Positions 4,130 through 61,900 of a DNA stretch of 64,000 bases are shown piece after piece (the stretch's first letter is position 1; each line of letters begins with the position of its first letter). The DNA comes from a virus. The stretch lies in IMG/VR virus record IMGVR_UViG_3300028895_000122; one strand, given 5' to 3'. Below the pieces are notes generated by a model, which did no database searches, was not told the origin of the DNA, and was given only the letters and a program-made list of their open reading frames with translations. The position numbers and the translations under genes were made by a program.

Positions 4130-5101
4130 TTAGATTACTTTGGATGGATCCGTAATAACCTGTGCTAATTCTTGACCACCACGCACTGATGTTAATTCGC
4201 CTGGTACCTTAACTTCAAACCAAGCAACATTGTCGTCTGGATAATTAACTTGATTAAGTAATTCAAAATCAAGTTTTTCTAATAATACCTTTAATAATCT
4301 ACCAGGTGTATATGTGTTCATCATATTTTCTGCATTGCGTACACCAGCAGTATAATCGCAATCATTATATGTAAACACAATAATTCCACCAGGCTTTAGA
4401 TATCTTTTTAGTTCTATTAGATAATCTTCGATAGCTTCAAGTGGCATATAGTTGAAATAATCATAAAGAACAATTAGACCAAGTTGATTCTCTGGCACAT
4501 TATGTACCTTATGATCACGTGTTTCTTCTATATTAAGATATCTAATTCTTTTCTGAAACTCAGGAGTCCATAGTTGTTTAACTTCATCAAACAATGACAT
4601 ATGAGTATCACCAATATACAACGGAGTACATGTTATCAATGGATCAACAAATTCTCCAGATTCTGGTCTAATAAATAATGCTGATCGTTTCCAATCAGCA
4701 TGAGTCTCGAGCCGGCCTATAAAGTGTTCTTTAACCTTGTCTCGTTTAATACATGGAAAGTTTTGATATCGTTCTTTAACATACTCGTGAGTATCATGCT
4801 CTTTAGCAGTATCGTACCACTCGTAACTTTGTTGAATTAATGGTTTTTCGAGTTCGTAAATAATGTCAGACATATCACTTTTATATTGTTCTAACATTTT
4901 ATCAAACTCATTGAGGTGTTGAGTTATTTTGGCTCCCATACCAACCATATCTGTTTGGTCACAAGCTAACCCAATATCTTGTGCTGATACATCACCTAAA
5001 ATTTTAGATAATTCAGTATTAACATATTGTGTTAACTCATTGACGTGCCATTGCTCAACTGCTGTACGATAACTTACTAAATCACTTAATTTCATTTTCA
5101 A
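4130..5101 (-). CDS. hypothetical protein, possible degenerate class-I methyltransferase-like fold
   Basis: ATGA overlap with the polymerase C-fragment. A C-terminal LKPGGIIVFTYNDCD resembles a post-motif MTase segment. No GxGxG motif I was found. Confidence 0.35.
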   Translation of the reverse strand: MKMKLSDLVSYRTAVEQWHVNELTQYVNTELSKILGDVSAQDIGLACDQTDMVGMGAKITQHLNEFDKMLEQYKSDMSDIIYELEKPLIQQSYEWYDTAKEHDTHEYVKERYQNFPCIKRDKVKEHFIGRLETHADWKRSALFIRPESGEFVDPLITCTPLYIGDTHMSLFDEVKQLWTPEFQKRIRYLNIEETRDHKVHNVPENQLGLIVLYDYFNYMPLEAIEDYLIELKRYLKPGGIIVFTYNDCDYTAGVRNAENMMNTYTPGRLLKVLLEKLDFELLNQVNYPDDNVAWFEVKVPGELTSVRGGQELAQVITDPSKVI

Positions 5102-7986: not shown

Positions 7987-8135
7987 ATGCGAATTAAAGA
8001 AGTCACAAAAAAGGTTGTTAAAGATGACGCAGACTATAACAATGATGTTATGTCTGGCCATCAAAAGCCTATTCCCGAACTTACACCTGCTCAAGTCAAA
8101 AAAGCAAAAGCCCTCAAAAAGATTAAGAATCTATA
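7987..8135 (+). CDS. possible small Lys-rich ORF (49 aa), opposite strand
   Basis: ATG..TAG open frame MRIKEVTKKVVKDDADYNNDVMSGHQKPIPELTPAQVKKAKALKKIKNL in the gap between the HEG-like gene and the polymerase N-fragment. It overlaps the polymerase stop and has no clear SD. Confidence 0.15.
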
Positions 8136-10315
8136 GAGATAATTAAGTCATCATCCTGCAATTCTGTAGGTTTAACTTCTATTGTAAATCCGTCTCTATC
8201 AACTATTAAACTATGATCCTCTGTAACGGTTATAGAACTACCATCTTCCATTGTGACCTTGTATAGTTGTTTGGATGTTTTATGACGCATCACATAGTTG
8301 ATCGCTCCAAATACAGCCTCATCTTCATGAGCATTATAACCAAGCACCTTTAGATCATGTTGTGCTTCTGTGGGTATGGCATATTCTTTACCGCCATCTT
8401 GCTCTACCTTGTATTGAATCTGATTGTATAAATCTTCTATGGATATGTTGCCTTTGTTGGTGTTTAATGTAGTATCGCCTGTAACTGAGTCGCCGTATAT
8501 GATGCATTCACCAACATGATCATATTCTCCTGTTAAACATTGATTAACATAAGCGTCCATGTGTTTAGCAATTGCTCGCCCTGTTAACGTTGTGCTTTGT
8601 CCTATCCTAGGGTCAAAAAATCTACAATGTGGGTTTAGGATAGCACCATATAAAGAGTTAAGGTTAATCTTTTTAACGAGTTGTCGTTTATCCCAGAAAG
8701 CAATTTCTTCTTTATCGCTTGCTGTTTTTTTCTTTGCTTGTAATTCTTTACGTTCGGCATACCAACGTTCTAGTAACCCTGGAACAACACCTTTCTTTTC
8801 GTATGTAAAGATGGTACCATTTGCACTTATACACCAATTGGTATTCTCGTTAAATATATGGTCATGTAACTCTTTTGCAGTATGTACGCTTTCTTCGCCG
8901 TTAACCCAATCGACAGTAATTTCTGTATCTGTTCTGCGATCCATAACTGCTGTATATTCCAATGTACCAAACAATCCTTCCCAGGCTGCTGCAAACGAAG
9001 CACCTACATATTTCTTACCATTTCTAAACGTCGGCTCTTGTTTCTTTTTAATGTAGTTGTTGGTCATTATAGGACGTAGTTGTCCTACAATAGTTTCATT
9101 AGCCATGTTCAATGCACGAATAACAGATGGATACAGTGAGTTCAAGTCAACCGACCCAATCCATTTATGTACACCTTTTTTAGGGTATGCTACATAAGCA
9201 CCTGCTGCTTGTGTATCTTCTTTGTCGTGGCGTTTACGATCTGGTACTACCATTCCGCGTTCATGTGCTTCGTTGATGATGGCTTGCTCTGTTACCGCCA
9301 CCGCGCCCATTGTTGTAGGAAGCAATACAGTATTAGCATGAGCTAGTTCGTTTGCTAAATCAAGGAACTTGAGTTTCTCATCCAGTTTAGCAAGTAACGC
9401 AACGTCCTGCCTGTTATAGTCAATAAACGTGTAAAAGTCTTGGTTGTATAGTTGGTCAAGTGTGCCTTCATATTCTACCTTACGCTCGCCAAGTTCATAT
9501 TCACCAATTGCATCTAAGCTATAAGAATGCATTTCGTGATATGTATATTTTCTGTACAGTTGCATATAATCCATATGAACCCTACCAACTGTATCATATG
9601 TAATATGTTCTGCACCAAACCGTTCAAATGTACGTTTCTTAGGTAACATACCCCACAAACATAATCTACGAGTGTCGTCTTTACTTAATACTCGTGTAAT
9701 ACGATTTACTGTGTATGGTATATCAAAGCCTTCGCTGTTCCAGCCGCTATACACGTCGGCGTCTTCGATTATATCCAAAAAGGTTAATAACATATCACGT
9801 TCGTGTTCGAAGATAAATGTATTAGGAAACTCTTTACACATTTCTTGTGCTTCTTCGACTGATAATGTTTTTGGCGGCACCGCCAATGTAATAAGACTTT
9901 CCATCCAATCTAAATATACTGTGATAGCAGTAATCTTATTAAACGGATCGTCTGTTGGTGCAAAACCTTTTTCTTGGTGGAAGTCCACCTCGATATCAAA
10001 AAACGCTGTTTGTAGTTTGGGTGAGTCAACATCTTTATAGTTTGTTTCTATACACCTAAAGATAGGATTAATATCAGATTCAAACAATTGTTGACCTGAA
10101 TGCATTTTAATTTCTTTTTGGAACTCTTTGCCAGTTCTACATGAAAACTTCGATACTGGTGTTCCATAAAGACTTATGTATTTCCCTTTTGCTGATGGGT
10201 AATAAAATACATAGTCGGCAGGATATTCTTTGAATAATCTCTGCCCATCTTTTGATCTTTCTACAATTTTAATACGATCATGTTCACGATCGTGTATAGC
10301 GTCAACATAACTCAT
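8123..10315 (-). CDS. 43: DNA polymerase (family B, gp43) N-terminal fragment carrying an N-intein
   Basis: FFDIEV (Exo I), DLNSLYPS (motif A) and KINLNSLYG (motif B) are present. The extein ends ECIIYGD. A 121-aa SVTGDTTL...VTEDHSLIV... tail follows, then stop. Confidence 0.85.
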   Translation of the reverse strand: MSYVDAIHDREHDRIKIVERSKDGQRLFKEYPADYVFYYPSAKGKYISLYGTPVSKFSCRTGKEFQKEIKMHSGQQLFESDINPIFRCIETNYKDVDSPKLQTAFFDIEVDFHQEKGFAPTDDPFNKITAITVYLDWMESLITLAVPPKTLSVEEAQEMCKEFPNTFIFEHERDMLLTFLDIIEDADVYSGWNSEGFDIPYTVNRITRVLSKDDTRRLCLWGMLPKKRTFERFGAEHITYDTVGRVHMDYMQLYRKYTYHEMHSYSLDAIGEYELGERKVEYEGTLDQLYNQDFYTFIDYNRQDVALLAKLDEKLKFLDLANELAHANTVLLPTTMGAVAVTEQAIINEAHERGMVVPDRKRHDKEDTQAAGAYVAYPKKGVHKWIGSVDLNSLYPSVIRALNMANETIVGQLRPIMTNNYIKKKQEPTFRNGKKYVGASFAAAWEGLFGTLEYTAVMDRRTDTEITVDWVNGEESVHTAKELHDHIFNENTNWCISANGTIFTYEKKGVVPGLLERWYAERKELQAKKKTASDKEEIAFWDKRQLVKKINLNSLYGAILNPHCRFFDPRIGQSTTLTGRAIAKHMDAYVNQCLTGEYDHVGECIIYGDSVTGDTTLNTNKGNISIEDLYNQIQYKVEQDGGKEYAIPTEAQHDLKVLGYNAHEDEAVFGAINYVMRHKTSKQLYKVTMEDGSSITVTEDHSLIVDRDGFTIEVKPTELQDDDLIISIDS
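8126..8488 (-). other. split-intein N-fragment (121 aa) at the C-terminus of the polymerase N-fragment
   Basis: Block A SVTGDTTL follows YGD directly. Block B is TxxH (SSITVTEDHSLIV). Confidence 0.7.
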
Positions 10316-10572
10316 TATTGAGTTCTGCCCACCGTTTCAAGAATTGTTTCAAGCAAATCATAATCTTCCTGTGCTTGATGGAAGTTTGATTTATATGCTG
10401 TATTAATTGCTTTCTTTAATACTGCTGGTTTAACATCCATTTCTTCTGCAATTGCTTTAATGGTGTCAGTAAGGCCGCCACGTAATACTTCGATTTCTCC
10501 AAGTACACCGCAACCCTCATTTACAAGGTGTGTAAGTTTTGCTTTTTCTTCTGAATTGAAAGTTTTAGACAT
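10315..10572 (-). CDS. hypothetical protein
   Basis: First gene downstream of promoter P2. SD TAGGAGAAT. Confidence 0.4.
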   Translation of the reverse strand: MSKTFNSEEKAKLTHLVNEGCGVLGEIEVLRGGLTDTIKAIAEEMDVKPAVLKKAINTAYKSNFHQAQEDYDLLETILETVGRTQ

Positions 10573-10598
10573 GCTATTCTCCTATAATCTAAAGTATA

Positions 10599-10627
10599 AT
10601 TATAGTTGAATAGCTTGGGTATGTCAA
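10599..10627 (-). promoter_or_regulatory. sigma70-type early promoter P2 (TTGACA-N17-TATAAT)
   Basis: Minus strand reads TTGACA tacccaagctattcaac TATAAT, then tatactttagattaTAGGAGAATagcATG. Confidence 0.6.
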
Positions 10628-10628
10628 T

Positions 10629-10892
10629 TTATTTTAGAGGTGTTTGCTCGATTTGGTCTAATCGATTTAAGATATTTTGGATAGTTTCGTCTTGACTATC
10701 TAACTGATGTTGCATAGAAGTAATATCTTGTTCGTCGTCTGATTGTTCATCGTGGTGTAAGTTAGCTAATGCTTCTACATCAGTATCAGCGTGAGCATAC
10801 TTAGCACGAGCCTTTTTGATTGTTCTCGCTGCGTCAGGATTTCGGATAGTTAAGTTGCCTTCGTCTTCGTTTAGGAATTCAAACGATTTCAT
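10629..10892 (-). CDS. hypothetical small protein, paralog family B
   Basis: RTIKKARAKYAHADTDVEAL matches RKGRAKYAYAKSDLEAF of the adjacent gene. Confidence 0.4.
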   Translation of the reverse strand: MKSFEFLNEDEGNLTIRNPDAARTIKKARAKYAHADTDVEALANLHHDEQSDDEQDITSMQHQLDSQDETIQNILNRLDQIEQTPLK

Positions 10893-11179
10893 TTTAGTTT
10901 ATCTACCTTGCGTTGTAATGCTTTAACATCAGCAGTTAAATCCTGAATACGTTTCTTATAGTGATCACTTGAACGTTCTAAGTTATTAATGCGTGTTGCT
11001 TGTTTGTATAGTTCTTTTTCTGTGCCTTTGTAGTCGTCATCGACCATTTTAACAAAGGCTTCCAAATCAGATTTGGCATAAGCATACTTAGCACGGCCTT
11101 TGCGTAATGCAGCCGTAGTCTTAGGATCCATTATGTTAATGGTTGTTTCGTATGCTTCACCTAGGTCAAACAGTTTCAT
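10889..11179 (-). CDS. hypothetical small protein, paralog family B
   Basis: Tandem paralog of 10629..10892. Confidence 0.4.
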   Translation of the reverse strand: MKLFDLGEAYETTINIMDPKTTAALRKGRAKYAYAKSDLEAFVKMVDDDYKGTEKELYKQATRINNLERSSDHYKKRIQDLTADVKALQRKVDKLK

Positions 11180-12348
11180 TAAAATCCTTTTAATCCTATT
11201 GCTTGTGGAGCTGGGTCTAATTCAATGCCCTTACGTCCGGCAACACCTGCTACTTTTTTGATTTGCTGTAATGAATCTCTGCGGCGTTTTGCATCTGGAT
11301 ATTCTTTATATTGTTTTAATAACATAACCCACATTTTTTGTATTTTATCAGCAATGTCTCTTTCTGAACGATGACGATCATCTTGTTTAACTGCTGCACC
11401 TGCAAACTCTGGTTGTGGTTCCCAGTCAAAATCTTCGTTGAGTACAGAGAAGTCATTTAATAATGCAATAGCTTCGACCATCCACTCATCCATTTGTTGT
11501 GGTGCGCCAATGCTGTATGTTACTTCTAATAATTCGTTATAGCATTCTGATAATAAATCATAATCGTTAGATGATTTAACAAAGTTACCTAATTCTCTTA
11601 ACTGTGAAAAAATTTCACGTTTCAATGCATGAACACTACCAGTCTCAGCGACAACGTTTTTGCTTGCTTCTGCAGATTCAAATGCATAACTTATTAAGTC
11701 TCCGCCGTGTAAGTTAGAACGTTTAACTTGAAGTTTTGCTACCTTGTCTTTGCCTAATGCTTGTTTTAAATCTCTAATTAAGTCTTGAGTTGAACCTGTT
11801 TTAGATTTAAGTCTATAGTCTATTCCAGCTTCACCAACTAATTCGTTATCTACAGCTTTTTTAGCAAATGGTTTTGGTTTTTTATTTGTTTCTTTTGTGT
11901 GGAACTCTTTAGATAAACGATCTTTAATATCTTCTTCGGTTTCATCCATGCTGCGTAGAATATCAACTAACGATGGCGACTTTTCAGCAGTAACAACATC
12001 TTCAACTACTTCGTCTTCGTTTTCTTCTTCTTCGCCAACGAATTTACCTTTGGTAGGATGATCCTTTTCAGGTGAATCTAATACTGGTGAAATATTTTTA
12101 GATTTGAATGTTGCATCTGCTTGACCTGCTTTCTTTTGATTGCTATCTAAACCTTCTGCTACTAATTGAGCACTAGGATCTTTAGGAGCAACCTTGTCAA
12201 ACGCACTAAGAATGTTCATCATTGCTTTTGAATCATTATTTTTCGGTGCCGCACTTTGTTCACCAGTCGTTGGGTTAACATTTGGGTTTGAAGTTCCTAC
12301 ATTATTTAAGTTCTGTAGAATGTTTAACATTGCTTTATCTTCTGACAT
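11179..12348 (-). CDS. hypothetical acidic/lysine-rich protein (389 aa)
   Basis: Packed ORF with low-complexity acidic runs. No motif recognised. Confidence 0.4.
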   Translation of the reverse strand: MSEDKAMLNILQNLNNVGTSNPNVNPTTGEQSAAPKNNDSKAMMNILSAFDKVAPKDPSAQLVAEGLDSNQKKAGQADATFKSKNISPVLDSPEKDHPTKGKFVGEEEENEDEVVEDVVTAEKSPSLVDILRSMDETEEDIKDRLSKEFHTKETNKKPKPFAKKAVDNELVGEAGIDYRLKSKTGSTQDLIRDLKQALGKDKVAKLQVKRSNLHGGDLISYAFESAEASKNVVAETGSVHALKREIFSQLRELGNFVKSSNDYDLLSECYNELLEVTYSIGAPQQMDEWMVEAIALLNDFSVLNEDFDWEPQPEFAGAAVKQDDRHRSERDIADKIQKMWVMLLKQYKEYPDAKRRRDSLQQIKKVAGVAGRKGIELDPAPQAIGLKGF

Positions 12349-12369
12349 AATTAAATACCTTTTTTATAT

Positions 12370-12561
12370 TTATCGTTTTATTGTCTTACTACCTAAAACA
12401 TTCTTCTTCATATCTAAGGCATTCTTAACAGTACCATCTGCATTTTTCGCTTGTGGTGCTTCCGGTGCACCATATTTGCCCTTTTTAACTTTTGTTTGAG
12501 GATTTGAGACTGTAGCAATACTACCAGCTGATGTTGCGCCTGCACTTGCAGTTTCGTTCAT
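12370..12561 (-). CDS. hypothetical small protein
   Basis: Track ORF 12370..12612 trimmed to the internal ATG (MNETASAG...), which abuts the stop of the upstream gene. Confidence 0.3.
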   Translation of the reverse strand: MNETASAGATSAGSIATVSNPQTKVKKGKYGAPEAPQAKNADGTVKNALDMKKNVLGSKTIKR

Positions 12562-12565
12562 TATT

Positions 12566-12910
12566 TCATAAATTCGCATGATGTTGTTCTCTTTTAGGAT
12601 TAGCAATACCACTAAGTATTTCTATACCAAAACGTGTGTCAGTGTCTCTTATCATTTTAACACTGTGCTCGCAGTATTTAATTCTTTGGTTTTCAAAACG
12701 GAAATTACTTATATTTGGATTAACTGTTTCTAAATGAATAAACTTTGGTTCATCCATTGGAAACTCAACCTGTATAATTTCAGTAACATATACAGGATCA
12801 TTCCAGACATATTCTCGTTCTGCTAATAATTCGTTATCCGCAAAAATACGATAGGTAGGTGGGATTCCATCCCAGTCACAATATAAATCAACAAGTATTT
12901 TAGCGAACAT
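12566..12910 (-). CDS. hypothetical protein
   Basis: Packed ORF. No motif recognised. Confidence 0.4.
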   Translation of the reverse strand: MFAKILVDLYCDWDGIPPTYRIFADNELLAEREYVWNDPVYVTEIIQVEFPMDEPKFIHLETVNPNISNFRFENQRIKYCEHSVKMIRDTDTRFGIEILSGIANPKREQHHANL

Positions 12911-12936
12911 AATGCTATTTATCGCTAAAATAATGT

Positions 12937-13185
12937 TTACTTTTTAGTAGAGCAATAATATTGAATTAAATCTTTTTCTTTTCTTCTGCGTTGCTTCTTG
13001 CAACTAGTTTTTAATTTTTTCTTTTTGCTAAAAATTCTTCTTCTTTCTGACTTTGTTAGTTCCTTGTCAGTGTCACTATGAGTTACATAGTAGTGAGCTG
13101 AGCATTCTAATTCATCGTGATAATATGATGTAAACTTCTCGCAATACTCGCACTCGGTTTCGGTGATACTGTCATAATCAGTCAT
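12937..13185 (-). CDS. hypothetical Cys-rich protein with strongly basic C-terminus
   Basis: CEYCEKF...C...H motif with a KKKKLKTSCKKQRRRKEK tail. Possible nucleic-acid binding. Confidence 0.35.
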   Translation of the reverse strand: MTDYDSITETECEYCEKFTSYYHDELECSAHYYVTHSDTDKELTKSERRRIFSKKKKLKTSCKKQRRRKEKDLIQYYCSTKK

Positions 13186-32078: not shown

Positions 32079-32145
32079 AAAAAACCTCCTAACTGATTGT
32101 ATTATAGCAAATACCAGAAAGGAGGTCAATGAAATTTCTTTGAAA

Positions 32146-38139: not shown

Positions 38140-38438
<299 letters not shown>

Positions 38439-42132: not shown

Positions 42133-42969
42133 TCACCTTAGGTGTTGGGTTTCTTTAACTATAAAATTTTTGTCTTTATACATGCGCTGGTCAGCTAAGT
42201 GGATTATATCATCAATATCACTAGCTTCTAAACTTGTTGCATAGCCCATACTACAAGAAATTTGTTGCGGTCCTGCATCTGTAAAAATAGGTTTATTAAT
42301 TGCATCATAAATCTTATCCATGATCATGTTAATAACTTTGGTACTAATTGTTTTATTAATTAAAATAACAAATTCATCACCACCGTAACGACATACAATA
42401 TCGCTATCGCGAAGTAAGTGCTGCAATCGTTTTGCTACGACAGCCAGGACTTGATCACCTGCAGAATGACCACCAGGACCATCATTGACTGCTTTAAACT
42501 TGTTTAAGTCAATAAAGATTAATGAAAAATGATCAACTATAAACGATGCTTCGTTAAAAAATGCACGTCTAGTTAATGTGCCTGTTAGCGAATCAAAATT
42601 AATTTCATCATGGTAATCATCAAATCGAGCCACAGCATGTTCATCATCTAGTTTAAAAACATCAATGGCCAAACGAATCGTTTCCATGTTGCGATTTTTT
42701 GCTAGTATTACCCGTCTATCACTTAGCGTGTATCTATCCTCAGCTGTTGATCTGTCCATAAATTTATGCATCATATCAGCATGTTTTAATGCTGGGTTCT
42801 CGATTAAAATGTCTAAATCTTTGCCAATGAGCTCGTTTGGTTTATACCCAAATACATGAGCACCATACTCATTTATTGTAACAATTTTATGCTCTTTATT
42901 AAGCATAAGCATTCCAGAGCCGCACATATCAAGCATCTTTAAGAGAACTTCCGTTGTTGGTGTATTCAT
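42133..42969 (-). CDS. PAS-GGDEF diguanylate cyclase with intact A-site and RxxD I-site
   Basis: DSLTGTLTRRAF...FIDLNKFKAVNDGPGGHSAGDQVL...LRDSDIVCRYGGDEFVIL...LADQRMYKDK. RDSD lies five residues before GGDEF (the I-site). The N-terminal ~110 aa are PAS-like. Confidence 0.8.
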   Translation of the reverse strand: MNTPTTEVLLKMLDMCGSGMLMLNKEHKIVTINEYGAHVFGYKPNELIGKDLDILIENPALKHADMMHKFMDRSTAEDRYTLSDRRVILAKNRNMETIRLAIDVFKLDDEHAVARFDDYHDEINFDSLTGTLTRRAFFNEASFIVDHFSLIFIDLNKFKAVNDGPGGHSAGDQVLAVVAKRLQHLLRDSDIVCRYGGDEFVILINKTISTKVINMIMDKIYDAINKPIFTDAGPQQISCSMGYATSLEASDIDDIIHLADQRMYKDKNFIVKETQHLR

Positions 42970-44859: not shown

Positions 44860-45383
44860 TACGCTGCCTCCTGAAAGTAATCATCCGGAAGGTCCAATAC
44901 ATAACGAAGTTCATCATAACCGCGTTCAACATCTTCGGCTTCCATGATCCATTTAATAGCAGTTTCACGATTACCTGCACCCATAGCAATGGTTTCCTGA
45001 ACACGTTGTTCAAACTTCTCAACATTGCGGGCTTGCTGTTTGGCTTCTGCTTCACGCTCAAGCTCTGCTGAACGAGTAAGTGACTCAAGCTCTGCTTCGA
45101 GCTCATCATCGGACATTGCATTCAACGCACCCCAGTTTGGTTTGTAACCATAGACTTCACGGGTAATTTCAAACACCTCTGAAACAAGAGTGTGATGCTC
45201 ATAATCAGCAACACTACGAACACCGTAGGATTCCCAGTGATCCAAATCTGTGGTAGCATAACCACCCCAACGATGATTAGGATCTTCGGCAACCCACGCT
45301 TCCATTTCGGCCTTCTTAGATTCAAGAAGTTCTTTAAGGGCTAACTGTTCGGCAGAGTAATTCATTATGATCTCCTTAAACAA
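44859..45383 (-). CDS. hypothetical acidic protein
   Basis: Packed ORF. The 44852..45121 and 45122..45325 ORFs in other frames are taken as shadows. Confidence 0.4.
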   Translation of the reverse strand: MFKEIIMNYSAEQLALKELLESKKAEMEAWVAEDPNHRWGGYATTDLDHWESYGVRSVADYEHHTLVSEVFEITREVYGYKPNWGALNAMSDDELEAELESLTRSAELEREAEAKQQARNVEKFEQRVQETIAMGAGNRETAIKWIMEAEDVERGYDELRYVLDLPDDYFQEAA

Positions 45384-45579
45384 AAGAAGGTGCTTTTTTG
45401 TACATTGTTGGAGCGCCAGGATGGCTGCGGCTCATATCAATCTTGTGTACAACACCAGCGGCAATCAGTTCATTCAACGCATTCATTCCAGTGCTGATAT
45501 CATCGACACCGCGGATTGCTGCAAAAGCATTAATTGGATACACCCGACCGGACAGATTTTTGAGAATTTGCTCTTTCAC
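45376..45579 (-). CDS. hypothetical small protein (GTG start)
   Basis: First gene after promoter P4. AAGGA SD 8 nt before the GTG. Confidence 0.35.
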   Translation of the reverse strand: MKEQILKNLSGRVYPINAFAAIRGVDDISTGMNALNELIAAGVVHKIDMSRSHPGAPTMYKKAPSFV

Positions 45580-45610
45580 TTTGTAGATCCTTTTTCCTAA
45601 CTATGTGCAT

Positions 45611-45639
45611 ATTATAGGATATTTGAGTCAAAAGGTCAA
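45611..45639 (-). promoter_or_regulatory. sigma70-type early promoter P4 (TTGACC-N17-TATAAT) within conserved cassette
   Basis: Minus strand reads AAAAAGGTTGACC ttttgactcaaatatcc TATAAT ATGCACATAGTTAGGA. Confidence 0.6.
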
Positions 45640-45750
45640 CCTTTTTCTGCTATTTTTTGCATTTATTTTTGCAATAAAATCAATAACTTAGCAGATTTTA
45701 CAAAAAAAATATGGATTTGGGGTGAATTTTTCTGGGATTTCCCCATGAAA

Positions 45751-46122
45751 TTAGTAGTCTAGTTGGTAAAATTCTAGCTCTAGTCCTTTCTTTATCCACT
45801 GTTCAATGAACTCAGTGCCAACGTCACAGCTTACATAATCGTTACCTTGCATACCCTGTTCGCTGTATGTAACATCATCACCAATTAGACCCAAAAAGTT
45901 CAATTCGGCTCGCAACTCGTTCATGAATGTTTTATCAGTGTAAATAAGTCCATCTTCGTTGATATTCCAAGAACTAGTATCAAATTCGATCTGTAACTCA
46001 CCCCACATCTTACCATCTGCATCTTTGGTTGCATCCAGTTCGAGCTCGGTTGTCTTAACTGATTTAACAGAACTTGACCAGAGTCCATCGCCACCTGTTT
46101 TAATTGAACGATCAAATCTCAT
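45751..46122 (-). CDS. hypothetical protein
   Basis: Packed ORF. Confidence 0.4.
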   Translation of the reverse strand: MRFDRSIKTGGDGLWSSSVKSVKTTELELDATKDADGKMWGELQIEFDTSSWNINEDGLIYTDKTFMNELRAELNFLGLIGDDVTYSEQGMQGNDYVSCDVGTEFIEQWIKKGLELEFYQLDY

Positions 46123-46125
46123 AAT

Positions 46126-46551
46126 TTACTCCACTTCACACAGGTAAGCATAAGCCCTGTGATATTTCTCAAGGCGTTTAAAGTCTTTCTCGCGCAAACC
46201 TTTCATGCGAGTAATATCGCTGTTATGTCTTAGGTCTGCTTTCTTAATAGCACGAGCAATGTGATTTAACGAAACTCGTTCAATATAATCATCGTATGGT
46301 TCGTGATCAGCATGAGTGAGTAATTTAATGATCGTAACAGTATGCTCTTTAAATCCTTCTGATATTAACTGTTCTGCCGTCCATTCCGTGTCTTCAATGA
46401 GATCATGTAACACCGCCGCGATCATTGCTTCTATGCCAAACGATTTAACTTCGTGCATAACGTGTAAACAATGCAGGATATAAGGCTGACCGCCTTTATC
46501 TTTCTTATCTGCAAAAGCTTCTGATGCAATTGCAATAGCTTTACCTAACAT
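46126..46551 (-). CDS. HD-domain small alarmone hydrolase (SpoT/Mesh1-like (p)ppGpp hydrolase) candidate
   Basis: GGQPYILHCLHVMHEV...AMIAAVLHDLIEDTEWTAEQLISEGFKEHTVTIIKLLT matches the RelA/SpoT HD-domain pattern GEPYI.HPL.VA...AALLHDV(I)EDT...FG..VA.LV.GVTK. Confidence 0.65.
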   Translation of the reverse strand: MLGKAIAIASEAFADKKDKGGQPYILHCLHVMHEVKSFGIEAMIAAVLHDLIEDTEWTAEQLISEGFKEHTVTIIKLLTHADHEPYDDYIERVSLNHIARAIKKADLRHNSDITRMKGLREKDFKRLEKYHRAYAYLCEVE

Positions 46552-46580
46552 TTCAACTCCTTTTAGTTACTATATTTCAT

Positions 46581-46609
46581 AGTATAGGTGATTTTGGAGA
46601 AATTGTCAA
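46581..46609 (-). promoter_or_regulatory. sigma70-type promoter P5 (TTGACA-N17-TATACT)
   Basis: Minus strand reads TTGACA atttctccaaaatcacc TATACT, then ...AAAAGGAGttgaaATG for the HD gene. The -35 overlaps the upstream stop codon. Confidence 0.5.
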
Positions 46610-47007
46610 CTGGTTTTTAGAAAGATTTTGGAAAAAATTCCTGGTTTTGGTGGCTGCAAAAGATCGTGATTTTTTTCAATTAAACGATCGTTTTGTTTAG
46701 CTAACGAGTCGTTCATTTTTTCGAGCTCTTTTATGTGCTTTTTCAATGATTTAACATCGTCGCCTTTAAGAGTTTCGATTTCTTGTTGAAGTTCCTTCAT
46801 ACGCAATCCAGCACGATTGAGCTTACTAGTCAATGATGTCCAAACTGCACCATCGCTTTTCCAATTAACCGAGTGTCCGTGATAGTCGAAGTCAACACCT
46901 TTAACCTCTTCGGTTAACTTAACCATTTTCTCGTGTTCTTTAAGTTCTTGATATTCCATATACTCTGCTAAAGTAATATGGACTTGCTGTTCTGTTGTTT
47001 CATTCAT
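46606..47007 (-). CDS. hypothetical coiled-coil protein
   Basis: Packed ORF. Confidence 0.4.
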   Translation of the reverse strand: MNETTEQQVHITLAEYMEYQELKEHEKMVKLTEEVKGVDFDYHGHSVNWKSDGAVWTSLTSKLNRAGLRMKELQQEIETLKGDDVKSLKKHIKELEKMNDSLAKQNDRLIEKNHDLLQPPKPGIFSKIFLKTS

Positions 47008-48978: not shown

Positions 48979-49163
48979 ACTGGTTTTAACTCCCCCATTG
49001 CATTTTCTTCAAAACGTGCTACAGCAAAGCCGCCATCAACTTGAGTTGCTGATTGTGGTGGCATGTAACCTATTTGAACATGATATCCCATACGTCCTTC
49101 TTCGTTGGCTATCTCTATAGCACGTTGAAAATCTCGTTGCGATATGGTAAAGTATTCATTCAT
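48975..49163 (-). CDS. hypothetical small protein
   Basis: Packed ORF. Confidence 0.3.
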   Translation of the reverse strand: MNEYFTISQRDFQRAIEIANEEGRMGYHVQIGYMPPQSATQVDGGFAVARFEENAMGELKPV

Positions 49164-52988: not shown

Positions 52989-53253
52989 ATTCCCATAATA
53001 CTGCATTGCAATGATTATGAACTGCACCTATTGTCATGCCTGTAACATGATCGTGGTGTAAGTGTACTGGCCATTTGAAAAACCCATCTGGATAATATTC
53101 AGGGTGAACTTTCTTTTTTGCTATCTTTAAAGCAGGCATTCCATCTAGAGGTGCGCCACAATAATAGCAAAGACCTTTTTGGTGACGTACATACTCTTCC
53201 CTGAGTGTACGTCTCTCCTTTGGTTTAAGTTTATCATAGTTTTGTGGTTCCAT
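52975..53253 (-). CDS. Endonuclease VII-family (His-Me finger/HNH) protein
   Basis: CYYCGAPL...VHLHHDHVTGMTIGAVHNHCNAV parallels T4 endo VII CLICQREL...NHLDHDHELNG...RGLLCNLCNAAEG. Start taken at the ATG overlapping the PseT stop. Confidence 0.55.
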   Translation of the reverse strand: MEPQNYDKLKPKERRTLREEYVRHQKGLCYYCGAPLDGMPALKIAKKKVHPEYYPDGFFKWPVHLHHDHVTGMTIGAVHNHCNAVLWEYEGE

Positions 53254-54119
53254 TAGAACGCTCCGTAATTTACCTGGAACACCGTAAATCCCAAATGTCG
53301 CCACATATGAACCACTTGGTCACGATCGTCAAATACTCCAATCACATTATAACGACCTTTGATGTGATTGTTATAAATTTCTTCTTTAATAAGAGTATCT
53401 TTACGATTGTCACCTGCAGGACGAATATAAAACTCATCAAACGGAACACCATGCTTTGTTAGCCAATCTGCAGTCTCATCTTTACATGATCCATCACGTC
53501 CTGACACTACAACCAATTTGGTTGATGGTCCTGCTACTTTTGATACCGCGTAGATAACATCTGGGTTAGGAAGATCTGTTCCGACTTTGTCCCATTCGAA
53601 TGGTCCACGTCCGTTCATTTGTGCAACAGTACCATCAACATCAACAATAATACAATCTTCCAAATTGCTATCATACTCTGGTGTTGGCCACCAATGTTCA
53701 CGATGACGATCAAACATACCCATAATAACTTTAGCACCTACAGGATGTTCGCGTTTAGCATCGCGGTCCAGACATACACCAAGATGTACATCAGTAAACA
53801 GTTCTTCACGATAACCAATACCACGATCGTCAGCAATGCCTTTCCAGTTTTTGTTGCGATCTGGATTCAGGTTAGTGTCAGATACGATAACAGATTTACC
53901 GTGCGACAGAGCTTCTTGAGCCATAGCCATTGCTGTAACAGTTACAGTAGACTCGCGCCATTTGCTGAACTTGTTATAACGATCACGGCCCTGCATTGCT
54001 AGACGAATGTCATCACGATTTACATTAATATAATCTGGGTTTTGTTTAATGAACTCGTTAGTCCAAGTAGTTTTACCTGAAGCTGGCAGTCCAACTGTTA
54101 GTACGATTTCTTGTGTCAT
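53253..54119 (-). CDS. pseT: polynucleotide 5'-kinase/3'-phosphatase (T4 PseT orthologue)
   Basis: Collinear with T4 Pnk: VLTVGLPASGKTTWTNEFIKQNPDYINVNRDD, VIVSDTNLNPDRN, IIVDVDGTVAQMNGRGPF (HAD DxDGT), RKDTLIKEEIY, DDRDQVVHMWRHLGF. Confidence 0.85.
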   Translation of the reverse strand: MTQEIVLTVGLPASGKTTWTNEFIKQNPDYINVNRDDIRLAMQGRDRYNKFSKWRESTVTVTAMAMAQEALSHGKSVIVSDTNLNPDRNKNWKGIADDRGIGYREELFTDVHLGVCLDRDAKREHPVGAKVIMGMFDRHREHWWPTPEYDSNLEDCIIVDVDGTVAQMNGRGPFEWDKVGTDLPNPDVIYAVSKVAGPSTKLVVVSGRDGSCKDETADWLTKHGVPFDEFYIRPAGDNRKDTLIKEEIYNNHIKGRYNVIGVFDDRDQVVHMWRHLGFTVFQVNYGAF

Positions 54120-54151
54120 GTTTAACCTTCTTTATTCCTAACTATGTGCAT

Positions 54152-54180
54152 ATTATAGGTGATCTGAGCTAAATGGTCAA
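54152..54180 (-). promoter_or_regulatory. sigma70-type early promoter P6 (TTGACC-N17-TATAAT) within conserved cassette
   Basis: Minus strand reads AAAAAAAGGTTGACC atttagctcagatcacc TATAAT ATGCACATAGTTAGGAA. Confidence 0.6.
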
Positions 54181-54196
54181 CCTTTTTTTCGGCAGG

Positions 54197-54808
54197 TTAA
54201 GTCCTTGATTTCGAAGGATCTTTGACCCATCCGTTGTGTGTAGGAAGCATTAATTCCTCCCATTCTACTAAAATGGAGCCATTCCTAGCGATATTTGCCT
54301 CTACACAGACGTTAATATAGTCTGGGTCGTCCATTTCATATTCGGAATCCGTATCAGGATCTAATACCAATTTCTGTACAGTATTGTGATGAACGTGTCC
54401 GTGTATGTTATATCTTCCACGTAATTCAGCAGGATGAATAGGACTGTGGGTTAACCAGTGTCCTCTATAACGATCCATGCCGCGTACCACCTGGAAGTAT
54501 TTCATATATGCTTCAATAGGCATATCATCATGGTTGCCGAGAATAACTTTCTTATTGCCGTTGAGTTTTCCTACCTTTGCTAGATTATCCCAGCCTGACC
54601 CGGGCTCATCTTTAGTGCCAGGTCTTCCCATTGCAACATCACCTAAAACCCAAACCATGTCACGCTTCTTAACAATCGAATTCCAAGAGTCGTGTATCCA
54701 CTCGTCATGTTCTTTAGAGTTACTACCTTGGCGGCCATGTTCGCCGCTGAACTTAATAATGTTCTTGTGTCCTAAATGGAGATCACTTGTGAAATATACT
54801 TTACTCAA
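54197..54808 (-). CDS. calcineurin-like metallophosphoesterase
   Basis: SDLHLGH, WVLGDVAMG, ILGNHD and GHVHH motifs. Confidence 0.65.
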   Translation of the reverse strand: MSKVYFTSDLHLGHKNIIKFSGEHGRQGSNSKEHDEWIHDSWNSIVKKRDMVWVLGDVAMGRPGTKDEPGSGWDNLAKVGKLNGNKKVILGNHDDMPIEAYMKYFQVVRGMDRYRGHWLTHSPIHPAELRGRYNIHGHVHHNTVQKLVLDPDTDSEYEMDDPDYINVCVEANIARNGSILVEWEELMLPTHNGWVKDPSKSRT

Positions 54809-57906: not shown

Positions 57907-58192
57907 AGCCGTCCTTTGTTTGTACTACTTTAAATCCACGAAGCGAACCAAATTCAACTTCCTCGTTGAGATCAACTTTAAAGTCATTGTGAACGCGAAG
58001 TGCGATCATGCTGTACTTGTTAGAGTTCAGCAACCTGTTTAAGGTTGTGGTTTCGAGTTCGATGTCCTTTACGTTAATCTTTTCAGCACACTTAATCAAG
58101 TTGCCTAAACCAGAGGTACTAACATTCTCACGAGCAAACACTGAAAAACGTGAACCATTGGCATTAGTACGAGCATTAACTTCAAAACCCAT
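57866..58192 (-). CDS. hypothetical protein
   Basis: Packed ORF. Confidence 0.35.
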   Translation of the reverse strand: MGFEVNARTNANGSRFSVFARENVSTSGLGNLIKCAEKINVKDIELETTTLNRLLNSNKYSMIALRVHNDFKVDLNEEVEFGSLRGFKVVQTKDGFGYKSKGSRLFKI

Positions 58193-58506
58193 TATTTGTC
58201 TCCTACGATTGTAACAAAGTAATCTTCACGAGTTGCACTATAACCCCAGCTATCTGCTTTAGGATTGAAAACGCCAGTTTGGCGATTAAACTCTGTGCGG
58301 AGTTTAATCAAACCTTTCTTGGCCCACGACTCAAGCATTTTAATATCTTTTAGAGGTTTGCGATTGATATCCCAGAAACCGTTTTTGTCCCAACTGTTTT
58401 TACAATACCCACCAATATGAATTTCTTCACGGTTTTTATTGTAACCTTCTTGTGACAGTGCAACAAGCTCATTCCACACTTTCTGTTGTCTGGCTGATAA
58501 TTTCAC
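58192..58506 (-). CDS. hypothetical protein (GTG start)
   Basis: First gene after promoter P7. AGGAGAG SD 6 nt before the GTG. Confidence 0.4.
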   Translation of the reverse strand: MKLSARQQKVWNELVALSQEGYNKNREEIHIGGYCKNSWDKNGFWDINRKPLKDIKMLESWAKKGLIKLRTEFNRQTGVFNPKADSWGYSATREDYFVTIVGDK

Positions 58507-58537
58507 TGAACTCTCCTAATTTCCTAACTATGTGCAT

Positions 58538-58566
58538 ATTATAAGGGATTTTGGTCAAAAGGTCAA
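58538..58566 (-). promoter_or_regulatory. sigma70-type early promoter P7 (TTGACC-N17-TATAAT) within conserved cassette
   Basis: Minus strand reads AAAAATAGGTTGACC ttttgaccaaaatccct TATAAT ATGCACATAGTTAGGAAA. Confidence 0.6.
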
Positions 58567-58597
58567 CCTATTTTTGAAGAAATTTATCCTAATAAAA

Positions 58598-58807
58598 TCA
58601 ATAACTTACGTCGAGTATTTTCACGTCACTGTCGTCGGAATCTGGGTACCATGCACAAACTACTTCTGCCCCGGACGTCCAGGTATTATCGTAGACTGAA
58701 ACAACAATTTCGTCGCTAGTTTCGCATAATGTTGAAAAATCCTTCATTTCATCAGAAATGTCTGTACAGCCAATTAGTAATAAAGGCAGGAATAATAGTT
58801 TCTTCAT
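58598..58807 (-). CDS. small lipoprotein candidate
   Basis: MKKLLFLPLLLIGC is a lipobox. Confidence 0.4.
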   Translation of the reverse strand: MKKLLFLPLLLIGCTDISDEMKDFSTLCETSDEIVVSVYDNTWTSGAEVVCAWYPDSDDSDVKILDVSY

Positions 58808-59091
58808 CTTCTTTTCCTTGGGTTACGTTTATTACTCATTATACTAGGATCTATATAATTTGCGGGTTTTTTAGCCACCCATTTTGCGAATTTGCTTATT
58901 TCTTCATGTTCTAATAGTTTCTCAATTGTGTTGTACTGCTTAGCCAATTCCTTTTCAGTGAACGTTGCATGGATTTTATCGTGACATACACGATGTAGAG
59001 TCACAGTTTCTTTACCCTTTTTAGATTTAGGGATTAAGTGATGTTCGTCCATTGTATCATCATAAGGTCTTTTGCAAATTGGGCAATTCAT
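58804..59091 (-). CDS. HNH endonuclease
   Basis: MNCPICKRPY...EHHLIPKSKKGKETVTLHRVCHDKIH follows CxxC...HH...N...CxxCH. Start trimmed to the internal ATG at 59091. Confidence 0.55.
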   Translation of the reverse strand: MNCPICKRPYDDTMDEHHLIPKSKKGKETVTLHRVCHDKIHATFTEKELAKQYNTIEKLLEHEEISKFAKWVAKKPANYIDPSIMSNKRNPRKRR

Positions 59092-59126
59092 AAGTATAAG
59101 TATTACATAACTAGAATAAAAAGTCA

Positions 59127-59333
59127 ATGTCGAAATACGAATATATTTGTAAAGATTGTGAGGTAGTATATATTATCGAAAAAACTGCCGACAGGAAAAG
59201 TGATAGTTCAGTTTGTCCACATTGTCATGGAGTTTTAGAATACACCGGCGCCATTATTTCTGAAGATAAAAAAGAAAAACCTAAAAACGTTGTTTCATTG
59301 GCTGAAATGAGATTGCGTAAGAAAGGAATCTAA
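59127..59333 (+). CDS. FmdB-type zinc-ribbon protein
   Basis: MSKYEYICKDCEVVY...SVCPHCHG. First plus-strand gene at the strand switch. Confidence 0.45.
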   Translation: MSKYEYICKDCEVVYIIEKTADRKSDSSVCPHCHGVLEYTGAIISEDKKEKPKNVVSLAEMRLRKKGI

Positions 59334-59377: not shown

Positions 59378-60652
59378 ATGAAAGTTAGTGATATCTTACG
59401 AAAAATTGCAGATGCAGTTGATGCAGATGCAGAACAACAAGCAAAAAATCAAGACGCACAAGCCGCTCTTCATGCTCAAGACATTGAACAAGCAAAAGCT
59501 GATGCTGCTGAATTACAAGCAGGACAGGTTGCTCAAGTAGTTCAAGCTGCTAATAATATCAAACGTGCTGCTGAAAAAGACGCAGATGCAGTTGCTATGA
59601 GTGCTAGTCAACAAGCGCCAACACCAAATACCTATGAACCAACTCCTGCAGATGATCAACAAGAACCAAACACGCACGAGTTAACACCTGCGGATAATAC
59701 CGATGATACAGAAATTGAAGTAATGGTAACACCATTACAACAAAAGCATGAGTTATTAAAGAAAGCAACAGATACTGCCAATGATGTAGATAAGTTTGAC
59801 GATGATATGAGTGATCATAGAGATAATGAGCTTGACTTATTAAAGAAAATGGCTGGTATTAAAGATTCGCAACCTGCACCAGATGATTTATCGGACACGG
59901 CATTAATTCAATTATCGTCAGACGAATTTGATGTTAAACTAGATTCTTCAGAATATGTAGGTGAAGATTCTTATATATTCTACGACATCGAAACCGGCTG
60001 TTTAAGACGTACAGATGGCACACCTGGCGGTACTCCAATATGTATCGAAGGTATGTCAAAGATTTTGGAGTTCCCTACATTTGGTGACTTTCCACAACCT
60101 GGCGAAAGCAATACCATTTATATTGCTGCCGACACTAACTTAATATATCGCTGGGATGGATCACAATACGTTTCACTTGTTAGTTTAGGTGATGACGACA
60201 ATGTCCAAGAACTTCCAACAGTTGGAGACTTCCCTGCTACTGGCACCACTGATGTTATATACATCGCAGCCGATACAAATTTATTATATCGTTGGGATGG
60301 TAGTAATTATGTTTTAATTAGTAACGATCACGAAAGTGCAACAGTAGTAAATATTTTACCAACCGAAACTAAAACTGTTATTGTAACAGTACCAGGTGGT
60401 AATTTGAGTGCCAAATACATTGTATCAATTTTAGATCAAGCAGATGGCCGCTTTGCTTCTTCGGAAGTAATGGCATCATATAAAACATTAGATAATTCTG
60501 TAAGCCATAATCATTACAGTTTACTTGGTGATAAAATCAAGTATCGCCCTGATGTATTGTTTAATACATCTTATATTGAACTCACAATCACAAACAACGA
60601 CACAAACCCAATAACCGCTAGTGTAAGCCGTATTCCTTCTATATCTGTATAA
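59378..60652 (+). CDS. tail-fibre/adhesin-like protein with N-terminal coiled coil and two tandem ~40-aa repeats
   Basis: Repeats ...FPTFGDFPQPGESNTIYIAADTNLIYRWDGSQYVSL / ...LPTVGDFPATGTTDVIYIAADTNLLYRWDGSNYVLI. Confidence 0.45.
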   Translation: MKVSDILRKIADAVDADAEQQAKNQDAQAALHAQDIEQAKADAAELQAGQVAQVVQAANNIKRAAEKDADAVAMSASQQAPTPNTYEPTPADDQQEPNTHELTPADNTDDTEIEVMVTPLQQKHELLKKATDTANDVDKFDDDMSDHRDNELDLLKKMAGIKDSQPAPDDLSDTALIQLSSDEFDVKLDSSEYVGEDSYIFYDIETGCLRRTDGTPGGTPICIEGMSKILEFPTFGDFPQPGESNTIYIAADTNLIYRWDGSQYVSLVSLGDDDNVQELPTVGDFPATGTTDVIYIAADTNLLYRWDGSNYVLISNDHESATVVNILPTETKTVIVTVPGGNLSAKYIVSILDQADGRFASSEVMASYKTLDNSVSHNHYSLLGDKIKYRPDVLFNTSYIELTITNNDTNPITASVSRIPSISV

Positions 60653-60694: not shown

Positions 60695-61900
60695 ATGGCT
60701 ATTGATTTATTTAGAATTATGCATGGCTTGGACATCGAAAATGATGTATCGGGCAAAAATGCACATATCTTAGTAGGTGATGGAATTCCAGGCGGTGACG
60801 CAGGCCCACAAGATGCTGCACCGATTGGTTCATTCTTCCTAAGAACAAACACAGAAACTGACGGATTACAGGTTTACTGGAAACACACTAACGTAAACAA
60901 CTCATCTGCTGACTGGAAACAATCAGCTGATAAAGACTACGTTGATGCAGTTGCTTCGGGCTTATCATGGCGCGAACCAGTTGTCGTAATGGACGACACT
61001 TTATATGCTAACTCAGCAGCAATCCCAACAACAGGCACAATCGACGGTGTTGCATTATCAGCAGGTGATCGTGTTTTATTCACAAACATCACAGATGGCA
61101 CTGAAGAAAACATTTGGATTTGGGACGGTGCAGCATGGACAGAAGATACTAACGCAGAATCAGACGGTGATGCGGTATTAGTACAAGGCGGTACTCACGC
61201 TGAACAGCAATGGGTATATGATGGTACTGACTGGGTTCAATTTGGTTCAGCAGCTGGCTTTACTGAATTAGAACATTTACGCAACTACACTGGTAAAACA
61301 GGTCCTGGTGCTGAAAATCCTACTTACTCATCAGTTGATGTTGTAACACAAGGTTCTAGCCTAGAAACTGCAATCGGTGACTTAGATGACAGTGTTGGTA
61401 CTCGTACATATACAAACGATAATGTTGTAACAGACGGCGAAGACATTACATCATCTATTGACGCATTAGATACAGCAGTAGGTAACCAAACTTATACAGA
61501 AGATAATGTTGTAACTGATGGTCAAACATTATCAGAATCTGTTGATGCTTTAGATATTGCAATTGGTGATTTACAAGCGGCTGATTTAACAATCACAGGT
61601 ACTAACGTAACTGGTCCGGTTGTTGCTGACACAATTCCAGTTGCAGAAGCTACAGAATCAAAATGGATTATCCAAGTGCGCGAAAATGCTACTCCAGCTA
61701 ACCGTCGTGCTGTCGAAGTTCACGCGTTAACTGATGGCACTAACGTTGACCACACACGTTATGCTGTATTAAAACTTGGCGCAAACATTGCTGGTTTCTC
61801 AGTTGACGTTGATATTTCAGGTACAGATATGCGTTTATTAATCGATGCTACAAATGCATTTGATTATGTTGTTAAACGTATTGCTTACTCAGCATTCTAA
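60695..61900 (+). CDS. tail-fibre-like protein with ~19-aa tandem repeats
   Basis: Repeats TRTYTNDNVVTDGEDITSSIDALDTAVG / NQTYTEDNVVTDGQTLSESVDALDIAIG. Confidence 0.45.
   Translation: MAIDLFRIMHGLDIENDVSGKNAHILVGDGIPGGDAGPQDAAPIGSFFLRTNTETDGLQVYWKHTNVNNSSADWKQSADKDYVDAVASGLSWREPVVVMDDTLYANSAAIPTTGTIDGVALSAGDRVLFTNITDGTEENIWIWDGAAWTEDTNAESDGDAVLVQGGTHAEQQWVYDGTDWVQFGSAAGFTELEHLRNYTGKTGPGAENPTYSSVDVVTQGSSLETAIGDLDDSVGTRTYTNDNVVTDGEDITSSIDALDTAVGNQTYTEDNVVTDGQTLSESVDALDIAIGDLQAADLTITGTNVTGPVVADTIPVAEATESKWIIQVRENATPANRRAVEVHALTDGTNVDHTRYAVLKLGANIAGFSVDVDISGTDMRLLIDATNAFDYVVKRIAYSAF

Follow-up and report, generated by a model that had tools for sequence, protein, structure and literature searches.

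Three copies of a promoter cassette on the leftward gene array

The DNA examined here is a 64,000-nt viral stretch (IMG/VR record IMGVR_UViG_3300028895_000122, hereafter the window), and our subject is a short promoter cassette that stands in three copies in front of three of its genes. The source of the window is an uncultured jumbo phage with AT-rich DNA (36% G+C). Nearly all genes lie on the minus strand, in a leftward array of ~59 kb that runs from ~59.1 kb down to position 1, and their products include a family-B DNA polymerase (PolB), a Lon-like protease, RNA ligase 1 and a polynucleotide kinase. The initial annotation had described the cassette as a conserved repeat with an invariant transcribed leader, and the repeat proved to be real: the 23-mer TATAATATGCACATAGTTAGGAA, which covers the -10 hexamer and the 17 bases that follow it, is found exactly three times in the window (45594-45616, 54135-54157 and 58521-58543, all on the minus strand). 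No further match was found in the window with up to 3 mismatches, and none in 100 dinucleotide-preserving shuffles (0 expected).

Upstream of TATAATATGCACATAGTTAGGAA all three copies carry, in the same order, an A-tract of five to seven A residues (A5-A7), the element GGTTGACC and a 17-nt spacer, and their hexamers read TTGACC-N17-TATAAT, which equals 11 of the 12 consensus bases. The spacer is partially conserved, with 9-12 of its 17 bases common to any two copies, and copy 3 has AAAATAGG at the place of AAAAAAGG in copies 1 and 2. Overall the copies are 83-86% identical, and similarity among them ends abruptly after GGAA. Within the window the extended -35 element AAAGGTTGACC and the leader 11-mer ATAGTTAGGAA always occur together, at these three sites, and other near-matches to them are at chance level.

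Copy 1 (45594..45646, minus strand) is composed of the A-tract plus GG (45640-45646), the -35 element TTGACC (45634-45639), the spacer (45617-45633), the -10 element TATAAT (45611-45616), and the discriminator and start region ATGCACATAGTTAGGAA (45594-45610), in which an A at 45604 is the predicted start site by sigma-70 spacing and class consensus. It is followed by a ribosome-binding site (RBS; AAAGGA) and a 67-aa open reading frame (ORF) without Pfam family that starts with GTG at 45579 (together 45376..45593, minus strand). In copy 2 (54135..54188, minus strand) the -35 lies at 54175-54180, the -10 at 54152-54157 and the start region at 54135-54151, with a predicted start site at 54145; downstream are an RBS (GAAGG) and the polynucleotide kinase/phosphatase gene pnk (288 aa, ATG at 54119; 53253..54134, minus strand). 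Copy 3 (58521..58573, minus strand), the first strong promoter of the long leftward array, has its -35 at 58561-58566, its -10 at 58538-58543, its start region at 58521-58537 and a predicted start site at 58531, and leads into an RBS (TAGGAGA) and a 104-aa ORF, again without Pfam family, with a GTG start at 58506 (58192..58520, minus strand).

Each copy is thus followed by its own gene-specific RBS and GTG or ATG, 15-25 nt after the predicted start site. GTG starts for two of the three downstream genes had been annotated initially, and public assemblies contain identical gene calls for the same 67-aa and 104-aa products downstream of copies 1 and 3. A mini-ORF that would begin at an ATG abutting the -10 element was discarded, since it would precede the predicted start site and does not share the frame of the genes.

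The conserved start region fits a promoter class

The -10 TATAAT is followed by ATGCAC-A-TAG, in which the A of CAT is the seventh base past the hexamer. An A seven bases after the -10 in a CAT context is the usual start position for sigma-70 promoters. Transcription probably starts at this A (45604, 54145 and 58531) and, because this is the likely start, only the 11 nt of AUAGUUAGGAA would form the transcribed conserved part, with the other 6 of the 17 bases likely serving as discriminator. The identity noted over 17 nt past the -10 therefore stands, being invariant in the three copies, but its description as transcribed throughout would hold, by sigma-70 spacing, for only 11 nt.

To place this region among other promoters, IMG/VR was scanned with AAAGGTTGACC-N17-TATAAT alone, which gave >120 loci and, after removal of near-duplicates, 89 promoters among the matches listed. 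In this set position 1 after the -10 is A in 64%, position 5 is R in 85%, position 6 is Y in 86%, position 7 is A in 87%, position 8 is T in 81%, position 9 is A in 64% and position 10 is R in 78%; an A-rich stretch, AAGGAG and ATG follow downstream. The window sequence ATGCACATAG agrees with every position of this consensus (A1, R5 Y6 A7 T8 A9 R10), and a weaker form of the same start pattern is present in 32 promoters of the same contigs that have no GG before TTGAC. Since ATGCACATAG fits a class-wide consensus, the first ten "leader" bases look like the start-site signature of a promoter class, and most of the "leader" looks like a part of the promoter. The view that the cassette shows more conservation than promoter function needs is not borne out by these data: 10 of the 17 bases after the -10 match the start consensus of the 89 listed promoters, and ~11 nt would be transcribed.

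The cassette can be compared with the strong early promoters of the coliphages T5 (N25), T7 (A1) and lambda (PL, PR). Like them, it has near-consensus hexamers, a 17-bp spacer, an A-rich upstream tract, a predicted start at A in a CAT-like context, an initial transcribed region rich in A/U and in purines, and conservation across the whole polymerase footprint. Unlike theirs, the start region of the cassette is letter-for-letter identical among copies, lineage-specific (ATGCACATAG versus TAGTACATAG) and tied to the extended -35 AAAGGTTGACC. In strong coliphage early promoters the sequence downstream of the -10 contributes to promoter strength, and the initial transcribed sequence strongly modulates output (PMC12464699, PMC5961368) and, according to the authors of one of these studies, should count as part of the promoter (PMC5961368).

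An IHF-like box precedes each copy

All three copies are preceded by a 13-bp box. Upstream of copy 1, 38 nt from its -35, lies TAAGTTATTGATT (45678..45690, minus strand); read as its reverse complement, AATCAATAACTTA, it agrees with WATCAANNNNTTR, the IHF consensus given in PMC8942017 and PMC9452768. The same TAAGTTATTGATT is found 29 nt upstream of the -35 of copy 3 (58596..58608, minus strand), where it overlaps the TGA stop of a 69-aa ORF (58598-58807). Upstream of copy 2 the box has the opposite orientation, AATCAAGGACTTA (54198..54210, minus strand), lies 17 nt from the -35 and overlaps the stop codon of a 203-aa ORF (54197-54808). The cassettes are thus preceded twice by AATCAATAACTTA and once by AATCAAGGACTTA, and of the nine matches to WATCAANNNNTTR in the whole window (128 kb of strand) three lie within 40 nt upstream of the three cassettes. 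Among the IMG/VR matches listed, 14 of 88 promoters have a box within 130 nt versus ~1.4 expected, a tenfold enrichment, and nearly all of these boxes read (G/C)TAAGTCATTGATT.

At all loci examined, the spacings from box to -35 form groups of 15-17, 25-31 and 37-39 nt, which leaves 18-21, 23-24 and 32-36 nt unoccupied, in bins that were set post hoc and among copies that are related; a lone 22-nt spacing is due to an overlapping palindrome in contig L083. At the orthologous site after the HNH endonuclease gene, the box stands at 28 nt in a 344-kb relative (contig L045) and at 29 nt in the window, and the DNA between box and promoter has diverged.

The box is like an IHF site in its length of 13 bp, its match to 9 of 9 specified consensus positions, its AT-rich flank and its occurrence in either orientation. 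Its centres, ~58, 69 or 80 bp upstream of the predicted start, can be likened to the IHF-assisted phage early promoters lambda pL and Mu Pe. It is unlike a plain IHF site in that the four "N" positions are also fairly conserved, mostly as TGAC, and in that two boxes pair as a hairpin in some copies; the conserved "N" positions mean that a protein other than IHF may read the box. We infer that the box TAAGTYATTGATT is a positioned protein-binding site, with IHF as the leading candidate, and that it may double as a terminator arm.

Cassette versions follow the genome, not the gene

The Pnk and RNA ligase proteins of two IMG/VR jumbo contigs, L021 (250 kb) and L045 (344 kb), are ~70% identical to those of the window. 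In L045, where the homologous cassette reads TATAAT-TAGTACATAG, copies follow the conserved HNH gene, precede pnk and stand at other sites too. The pnk promoters of L045 and L021 have 13 of 17 spacer bases in common, as expected of orthologs. The pnk promoter of the window shares 4-5 of 17 spacer bases with these two, versus 9-11 of 17 spacer bases and 17 of 17 leader bases with its own paralogs. Because it is nearer to its paralogs than to its orthologs, the cassette version tracks the genome and not the gene, which indicates concerted evolution, by gene conversion, or promoter replacement.

The initial annotation had proposed that flanking gene content be compared among related phages, and had taken a lack of module boundaries at the repeats as evidence against its idea. 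Such a lack was not seen, since gene order breaks at copies 2 and 3 relative to the two relatives of ~70% protein identity. In the window the promoter and pnk follow the 203-aa ORF, in L021 and L045 they follow homologs of window ORFs 42133-42969 and 38140-38412, and the genes downstream of the post-HNH cassette are unrelated between window and relative. The further suggestion that the conserved leader may be a recombination hotspot finds no support at strain level, where the sole deletion nearby used another short repeat and not the cassette. In this case, ENA contig L169, a 3.1-kb deletion joins window position 49090 to 45961 at the imperfect repeat CAACGAAGAWGGAC (copies at 45944-45961 and 49090-49107), and two small ORFs are fused as a result. 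Either true strain variation or a chimeric assembly could account for this contig.

The HNH gene itself (58804-59127, minus strand) opens the leftward early array, immediately ahead of copy 3, and has a counterpart with 73% identity at the same position in L045. The pnk promoters of the two relatives (L045 13734-13815, L021 2923-3000) contain an inverted repeat whose two arms lie in the spacer between -35 and -10 and in the leader, and a U-run comes after it. The arms read CCCCTG...CAGGGG-T6 in L045 and GCCCTG...CAGGGC-T5 in L021, the outer pair differing in a compensating way, and the arrangement looks like a terminator interleaved with the promoter that would stop only transcripts arriving from upstream.

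The cassette appears to evolve like a PeSL but is not one as defined

Promoter-early stem-loops (PeSLs) combine a strong sigma-70-like early promoter with an adjacent terminating stem-loop, an AT-rich tract, a Shine-Dalgarno sequence and a start codon; they concentrate in hyperplastic regions at indel boundaries and are known from the T4-like phages RB49/phi1, T4/PST and KVP40/nt-1 (PMC2839356, PMC4122927). Recombination between PeSL copies gives rise to excised mini-circles. The likeness to PeSLs noted initially is in part upheld. The cassette is likewise a multi-copy conserved sigma-70-type early promoter with an AT-rich upstream tract and with a Shine-Dalgarno sequence and start codon at its 3' end. 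It too lies between small early ORFs: a region of 13 kb (45.6-58.6 kb) contains three copies and one diverged copy, and the ORFs around them have 55-230 aa and mostly no family. Each phage lineage has its own version, and copies stand before unrelated genes and at gene-order breaks between relatives.

The stem-loop is where the likeness fails. In our scan none of the three copies had a terminator-like site beside it, and folds of the 120 nt upstream are unremarkable (z = -1.98, -1.56 and +0.37). The sole hairpin that abuts a copy, at copy 1, is followed by A5 and not by a U-run, and copy 2 starts 10 nt past the upstream stop codon. Some cassettes of L009 and L045 do have a strong hairpin and U-run upstream (z = -7.7 and -4.2), and the hairpins upstream of related copies are formed by two inverted TAAGTCATTGATT boxes. 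The cassette is further unlike a PeSL in that its phage is not T4-like (Tevenvirinae) and in that an indel association is seen only versus distant relatives, not between close pairs. Since the terminator stem-loop is missing upstream of all three window copies, membership in the PeSL class is not supported: the cassette appears to evolve like a PeSL, but it is no PeSL as defined.

Conservation among variants and the most probable function

The exact TATAATATGCACATAGTTAGGAA is present in one IMG/VR contig and in nine metagenome stretches, three of the latter belonging to the window's own phage; in the searched genome collection it has no match. The remaining carriers (L001/3/4, L002, L005, L009 and L010) have no other DNA similarity to the window and almost no protein similarity, and in these otherwise unlike contigs the cassette is 88-94% identical. 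A profile search (nhmmer) and a relaxed pattern gave further variants in L009, L002 and L048. In the window and in carrier contigs the cassette stands before unrelated genes, and sub-families keep identical tracts up to the ATG before different ORFs (L001 versus L009, and L009 versus L048). The composition of L002, L009, L010, L018 and L048 correlates with that of the window at r = 0.96-0.98, which is compatible with one shared genome, but an unrelated contig reaches an equal score.

Window and co-occurring contigs together gave 12 sequence variants, or 11 distinct promoters, as two variants differ only in the downstream ORF. Across them we counted 41 minor-allele calls in the 17 spacer columns versus 4 in the 23 columns of the -10 and start region, and columns past +11 are essentially unrelated, a sharp decay of similarity. 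A variable spacer between two invariant blocks cannot result from simple recency or from one long conversion tract, but it can result from constraint on the flanking blocks.

Our preferred reading, to which we assign a probability of roughly 0.6, is that the cassettes are copies of one strong host sigma-70-dependent early promoter, kept uniform and copied between genes in an uncultured jumbo phage. The A-tract (UP-like), the extended -35 GGTTGACC, the 17-bp spacer and the perfect -10 would recruit the host RNA polymerase, and the message would begin with AUAGUUAGGAA and reach a gene-specific RBS and start codon within 15-25 nt. The invariant zone, made of discriminator, start site and first transcribed bases, would serve polymerase contacts, start-site choice and promoter escape. 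Recombination or gene conversion, which would keep the copies uniform within a genome and place the cassette before new genes, would best explain both the lineage-specific rest of the zone and the fact that the copies are 100% identical there. The box TAAGTYATTGATT, 15-40 nt upstream of the -35, would probably be bound by a DNA-bending or activator protein that helps the promoter.

Several points weigh against this reading. The exact 23-mer was first used to collect copies, which biases the invariance of the leader upward, with 11 columns fixed by the search pattern; the bias-free part consists of the six discriminator columns (3 minor alleles) and the nhmmer matches. The copies are also homologous, and counts made on them are not independent. 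Start sites were placed by E. coli rules, which may not be those of the host. Three other consensus promoters of the window (4096, 10599 and 51867) have quite different start regions and presumably work, so that strong promoters of this phage can do without the exact leader. Among the near-identical strain contigs no rearrangement coincided with a cassette. Helical phasing of the box is not specific to 10.5 bp, the Rayleigh test being significant at 10-10.5 bp and equally at 8 and 12 bp. Finally, two weaker relatives of the cassette (window 32087 and L002) have AGTTAGGA displaced with respect to the -10, as would be expected of an RNA-level or ribosome-binding role more readily than of a polymerase contact.

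Such an RNA-level role of AUAGUUAGGAA is the alternative that survives best, although we regard it as doubtful, and none of our observations requires it. The leader would offer ribosomes an auxiliary or standby loading site, its AGGAA standing 7-10 nt ahead of the true Shine-Dalgarno sequence, or would serve as a tag for an RNA-binding protein or nuclease that co-regulates immediate-early messages. All four minus-strand occurrences of AGTTAGGA lie downstream of consensus promoters; the motif shifts by 2 nt in either direction relative to the -10 (32087 and L002) and is itself the RBS at 32087, and each cassette copy carries another GGA-containing site, specific to its gene, a short way downstream. 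However, only ~11 nt would be transcribed, and AUAGUUAGGAA has no self-complementarity and no conserved structure and is too short for a structured RNA family. There was no Rfam match at gathering score in the window or in five related loci, and no tRNA or tmRNA was found. Inside operons, at a distance from promoters, the motif is absent, and positions +5 to +11 differ in the ~70% relatives (TTAGATA, ATTATAG, TAAACAA).

Somewhat less probable still is the idea that the whole unit, from IHF-like box to leader, is a self-propagating regulatory module of a clade of uncultured jumbo phages that spreads by targeted gene conversion and overwrites resident promoters, as at pnk; a phage factor dedicated to its invariant start region and leader would turn a whole immediate-early regulon on or off at once. 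We also think it improbable that the conserved zone is an operator, where a repressor of phage or host, acting as a dimer, would recognise the imperfect dyad CCTATAATATG/CATAGTTAGG (-10 to +10) and shut off the early promoters together. In copies 1 and 2 an imperfect inverted repeat does extend across the -10 and the start site, and the invariance spans exactly the -10 to start region. This dyad nevertheless requires a bulge and a mismatch, its CC is displaced by one base in copy 3, and the cassettes of the 344-kb relative do not keep it; the class-wide start-site consensus already accounts for most conserved bases, and no candidate regulator was identified.

A sigma-70-dependent promoter-proximal pause at the -10-like CATAGT (-1 to +5), which together with the spacer would form a loading site for an antiterminator as for lambda Q at PR', strikes us as very unlikely. 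Sigma-dependent pausing and antiterminator loading are documented for lambda PR' (PMC4005639), two critical bases of TATAAT, A2 and T6, are retained in CATAGT, a TATA-like element falls at the start site in the class consensus RYATAR, and the gene array transcribed leftward is ~59 kb long. Against it, the resemblance is one of pattern only, the cassette has many copies per genome, unlike lambdoid late promoters, and the spacer is its least conserved part; no Q-like gene turned up, none having been sought. Neutral recent duplication, in which undiverged copies would be identical without functional meaning, is disfavoured to the same degree, because the 83-86% identity within one genome and the TAAGTTATTGATTTTATT common to the regions upstream of copies 1 and 3, which looks like extended homology, are met by uneven substitutions with a variable spacer between invariant blocks, by the 88-94% identity in contigs without other detectable DNA similarity to the window, and by a homologous cassette in the ~70% relatives.

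As a promoter of host type, the cassette is an ordinary kind of phage control element, and what is modestly new is the IHF-like box and the class-wide start-site consensus. It does not overturn current understanding. As a predicted very strong promoter with its leader, it can help to annotate the early transcription units of an uncultured lineage of jumbo phages, and promoters and hosts of metagenomic phages might be predicted better with the consensus TATAAT-A-NNN-RYATAR and the positioned IHF-like box. Promoter versions that follow the genome would represent concerted evolution of regulatory DNA and would extend the PeSL idea beyond T4-like phages, without a stem-loop.

Other promoters and neighbouring genes

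The window contains seven exact TTGAC-N16-18-TATAAT sites, all on the coding strand, versus 0.42 expected, and an eighth site with TATACT; all these promoters have an RBS and start codon 20-30 nt downstream, and the seven are credible host-type promoters. GGTTGACC is combined with ATGCACATAGTTAGGAA in only three of the window's consensus promoters. The repeat search recovered a diverged fourth copy, TTGACA-N17-TATACT-ATGAAATATAGTAACTAA, at 46578-46620 on the minus strand (63% identical over 46558-46616 in that search; nhmmer E = 8e-5), upstream of a 141-aa ORF (46126-46551, minus strand). A fifth consensus promoter, TTGACC-N17-TATAAT at 32101-32129 within 32087..32129 (minus strand), has only AGTTAGGA in common with the cassette; there AGTTAGGA is 2 nt nearer to the -10 than in the cassette and doubles as the gene's own RBS (AGGAGG).

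By PolB, the nearest cultured clade is that of the Pseudomonas jumbo phage PA5oct (49.6% identity); identities to the polymerases of Atu_ph07, 121Q and similar phages range from 38 to 51%. In PA5oct, the promoter set found around mapped transcript starts has 32 members, which show TTGAC and TATAATA (PMC7318152). The cassette is like these in its apparent reliance on the host polymerase and in having the same hexamers, including the A after TATAAT; it is unlike them in showing no DNA similarity, and the first 50 kb of PA5oct contain two TTGAC-N16-18-TATAAT sites, neither of which resembles the cassette. Useful DNA relatives were absent from 50,697 phage records when searched by megablast with 2 kb and 6.5 kb around the copies and by blastn with the cassette and a typical IMG/VR variant, and we found no cultured phage with DNA similarity to the region. 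Near-identical contigs of the window's phage are present in several metagenome assemblies, the longest of 109 kb (ENA ERZ27256790 k141_364479).

Public annotation of identical contigs assigns an HD_4 domain to the 141-aa ORF behind the diverged fourth copy, and a GGDEF (diguanylate cyclase-type) domain with a weak PAS match to a 278-aa ORF (42133-42969, minus strand), pointing to possible nucleotide-signalling genes in the early region of a phage. The polymerase ORF (8123-10315, minus strand) has an intein-splicing Pfam match, another ORF 2 kb downstream of it (5098-6084, minus strand) has a weak DNA_pol_B match, and tblastn gave matches to relatives split in two pieces, which suggests a split or intein-containing polymerase.

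The window is missing 49 bp at 59932/59933, inside ORF 59378-60652 (plus strand), that are present in metagenome contigs L008, L011 and L012 of the same phage; where the window has this single 424-aa ORF, these contigs call two genes (186 aa and 250 aa). At 61394-61561 (plus strand), two tandem 84-nt units, 70% identical, lie inside a 401-aa head-decoration-like ORF (60695-61900) and probably encode repeated protein domains. Beyond window position 1, contig L013 (11520-21518) carries genes for GTP cyclohydrolase I, PTPS, a sugar epimerase, an aminotransferase and UDP-glucose dehydrogenase, a set suggestive of nucleotide/DNA modification or sugar pathways.

Two carrier contigs call for a further remark. 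In L005 (1695-1824, minus strand) a cassette is followed by ~110 nt without plausible ORF, a T-run and a second consensus promoter; a small RNA of ~110 nt driven by this cassette was considered and rejected, as its folding (z = -0.29) gives no significant structure. L002 (53 kb, several cassette copies) encodes at 10570-12965 a TctA-family transporter subunit and a Gram-negative porin, beside thymidylate synthase and a MoxR/VWA-like pair, an unusual cargo if the contig is phage.

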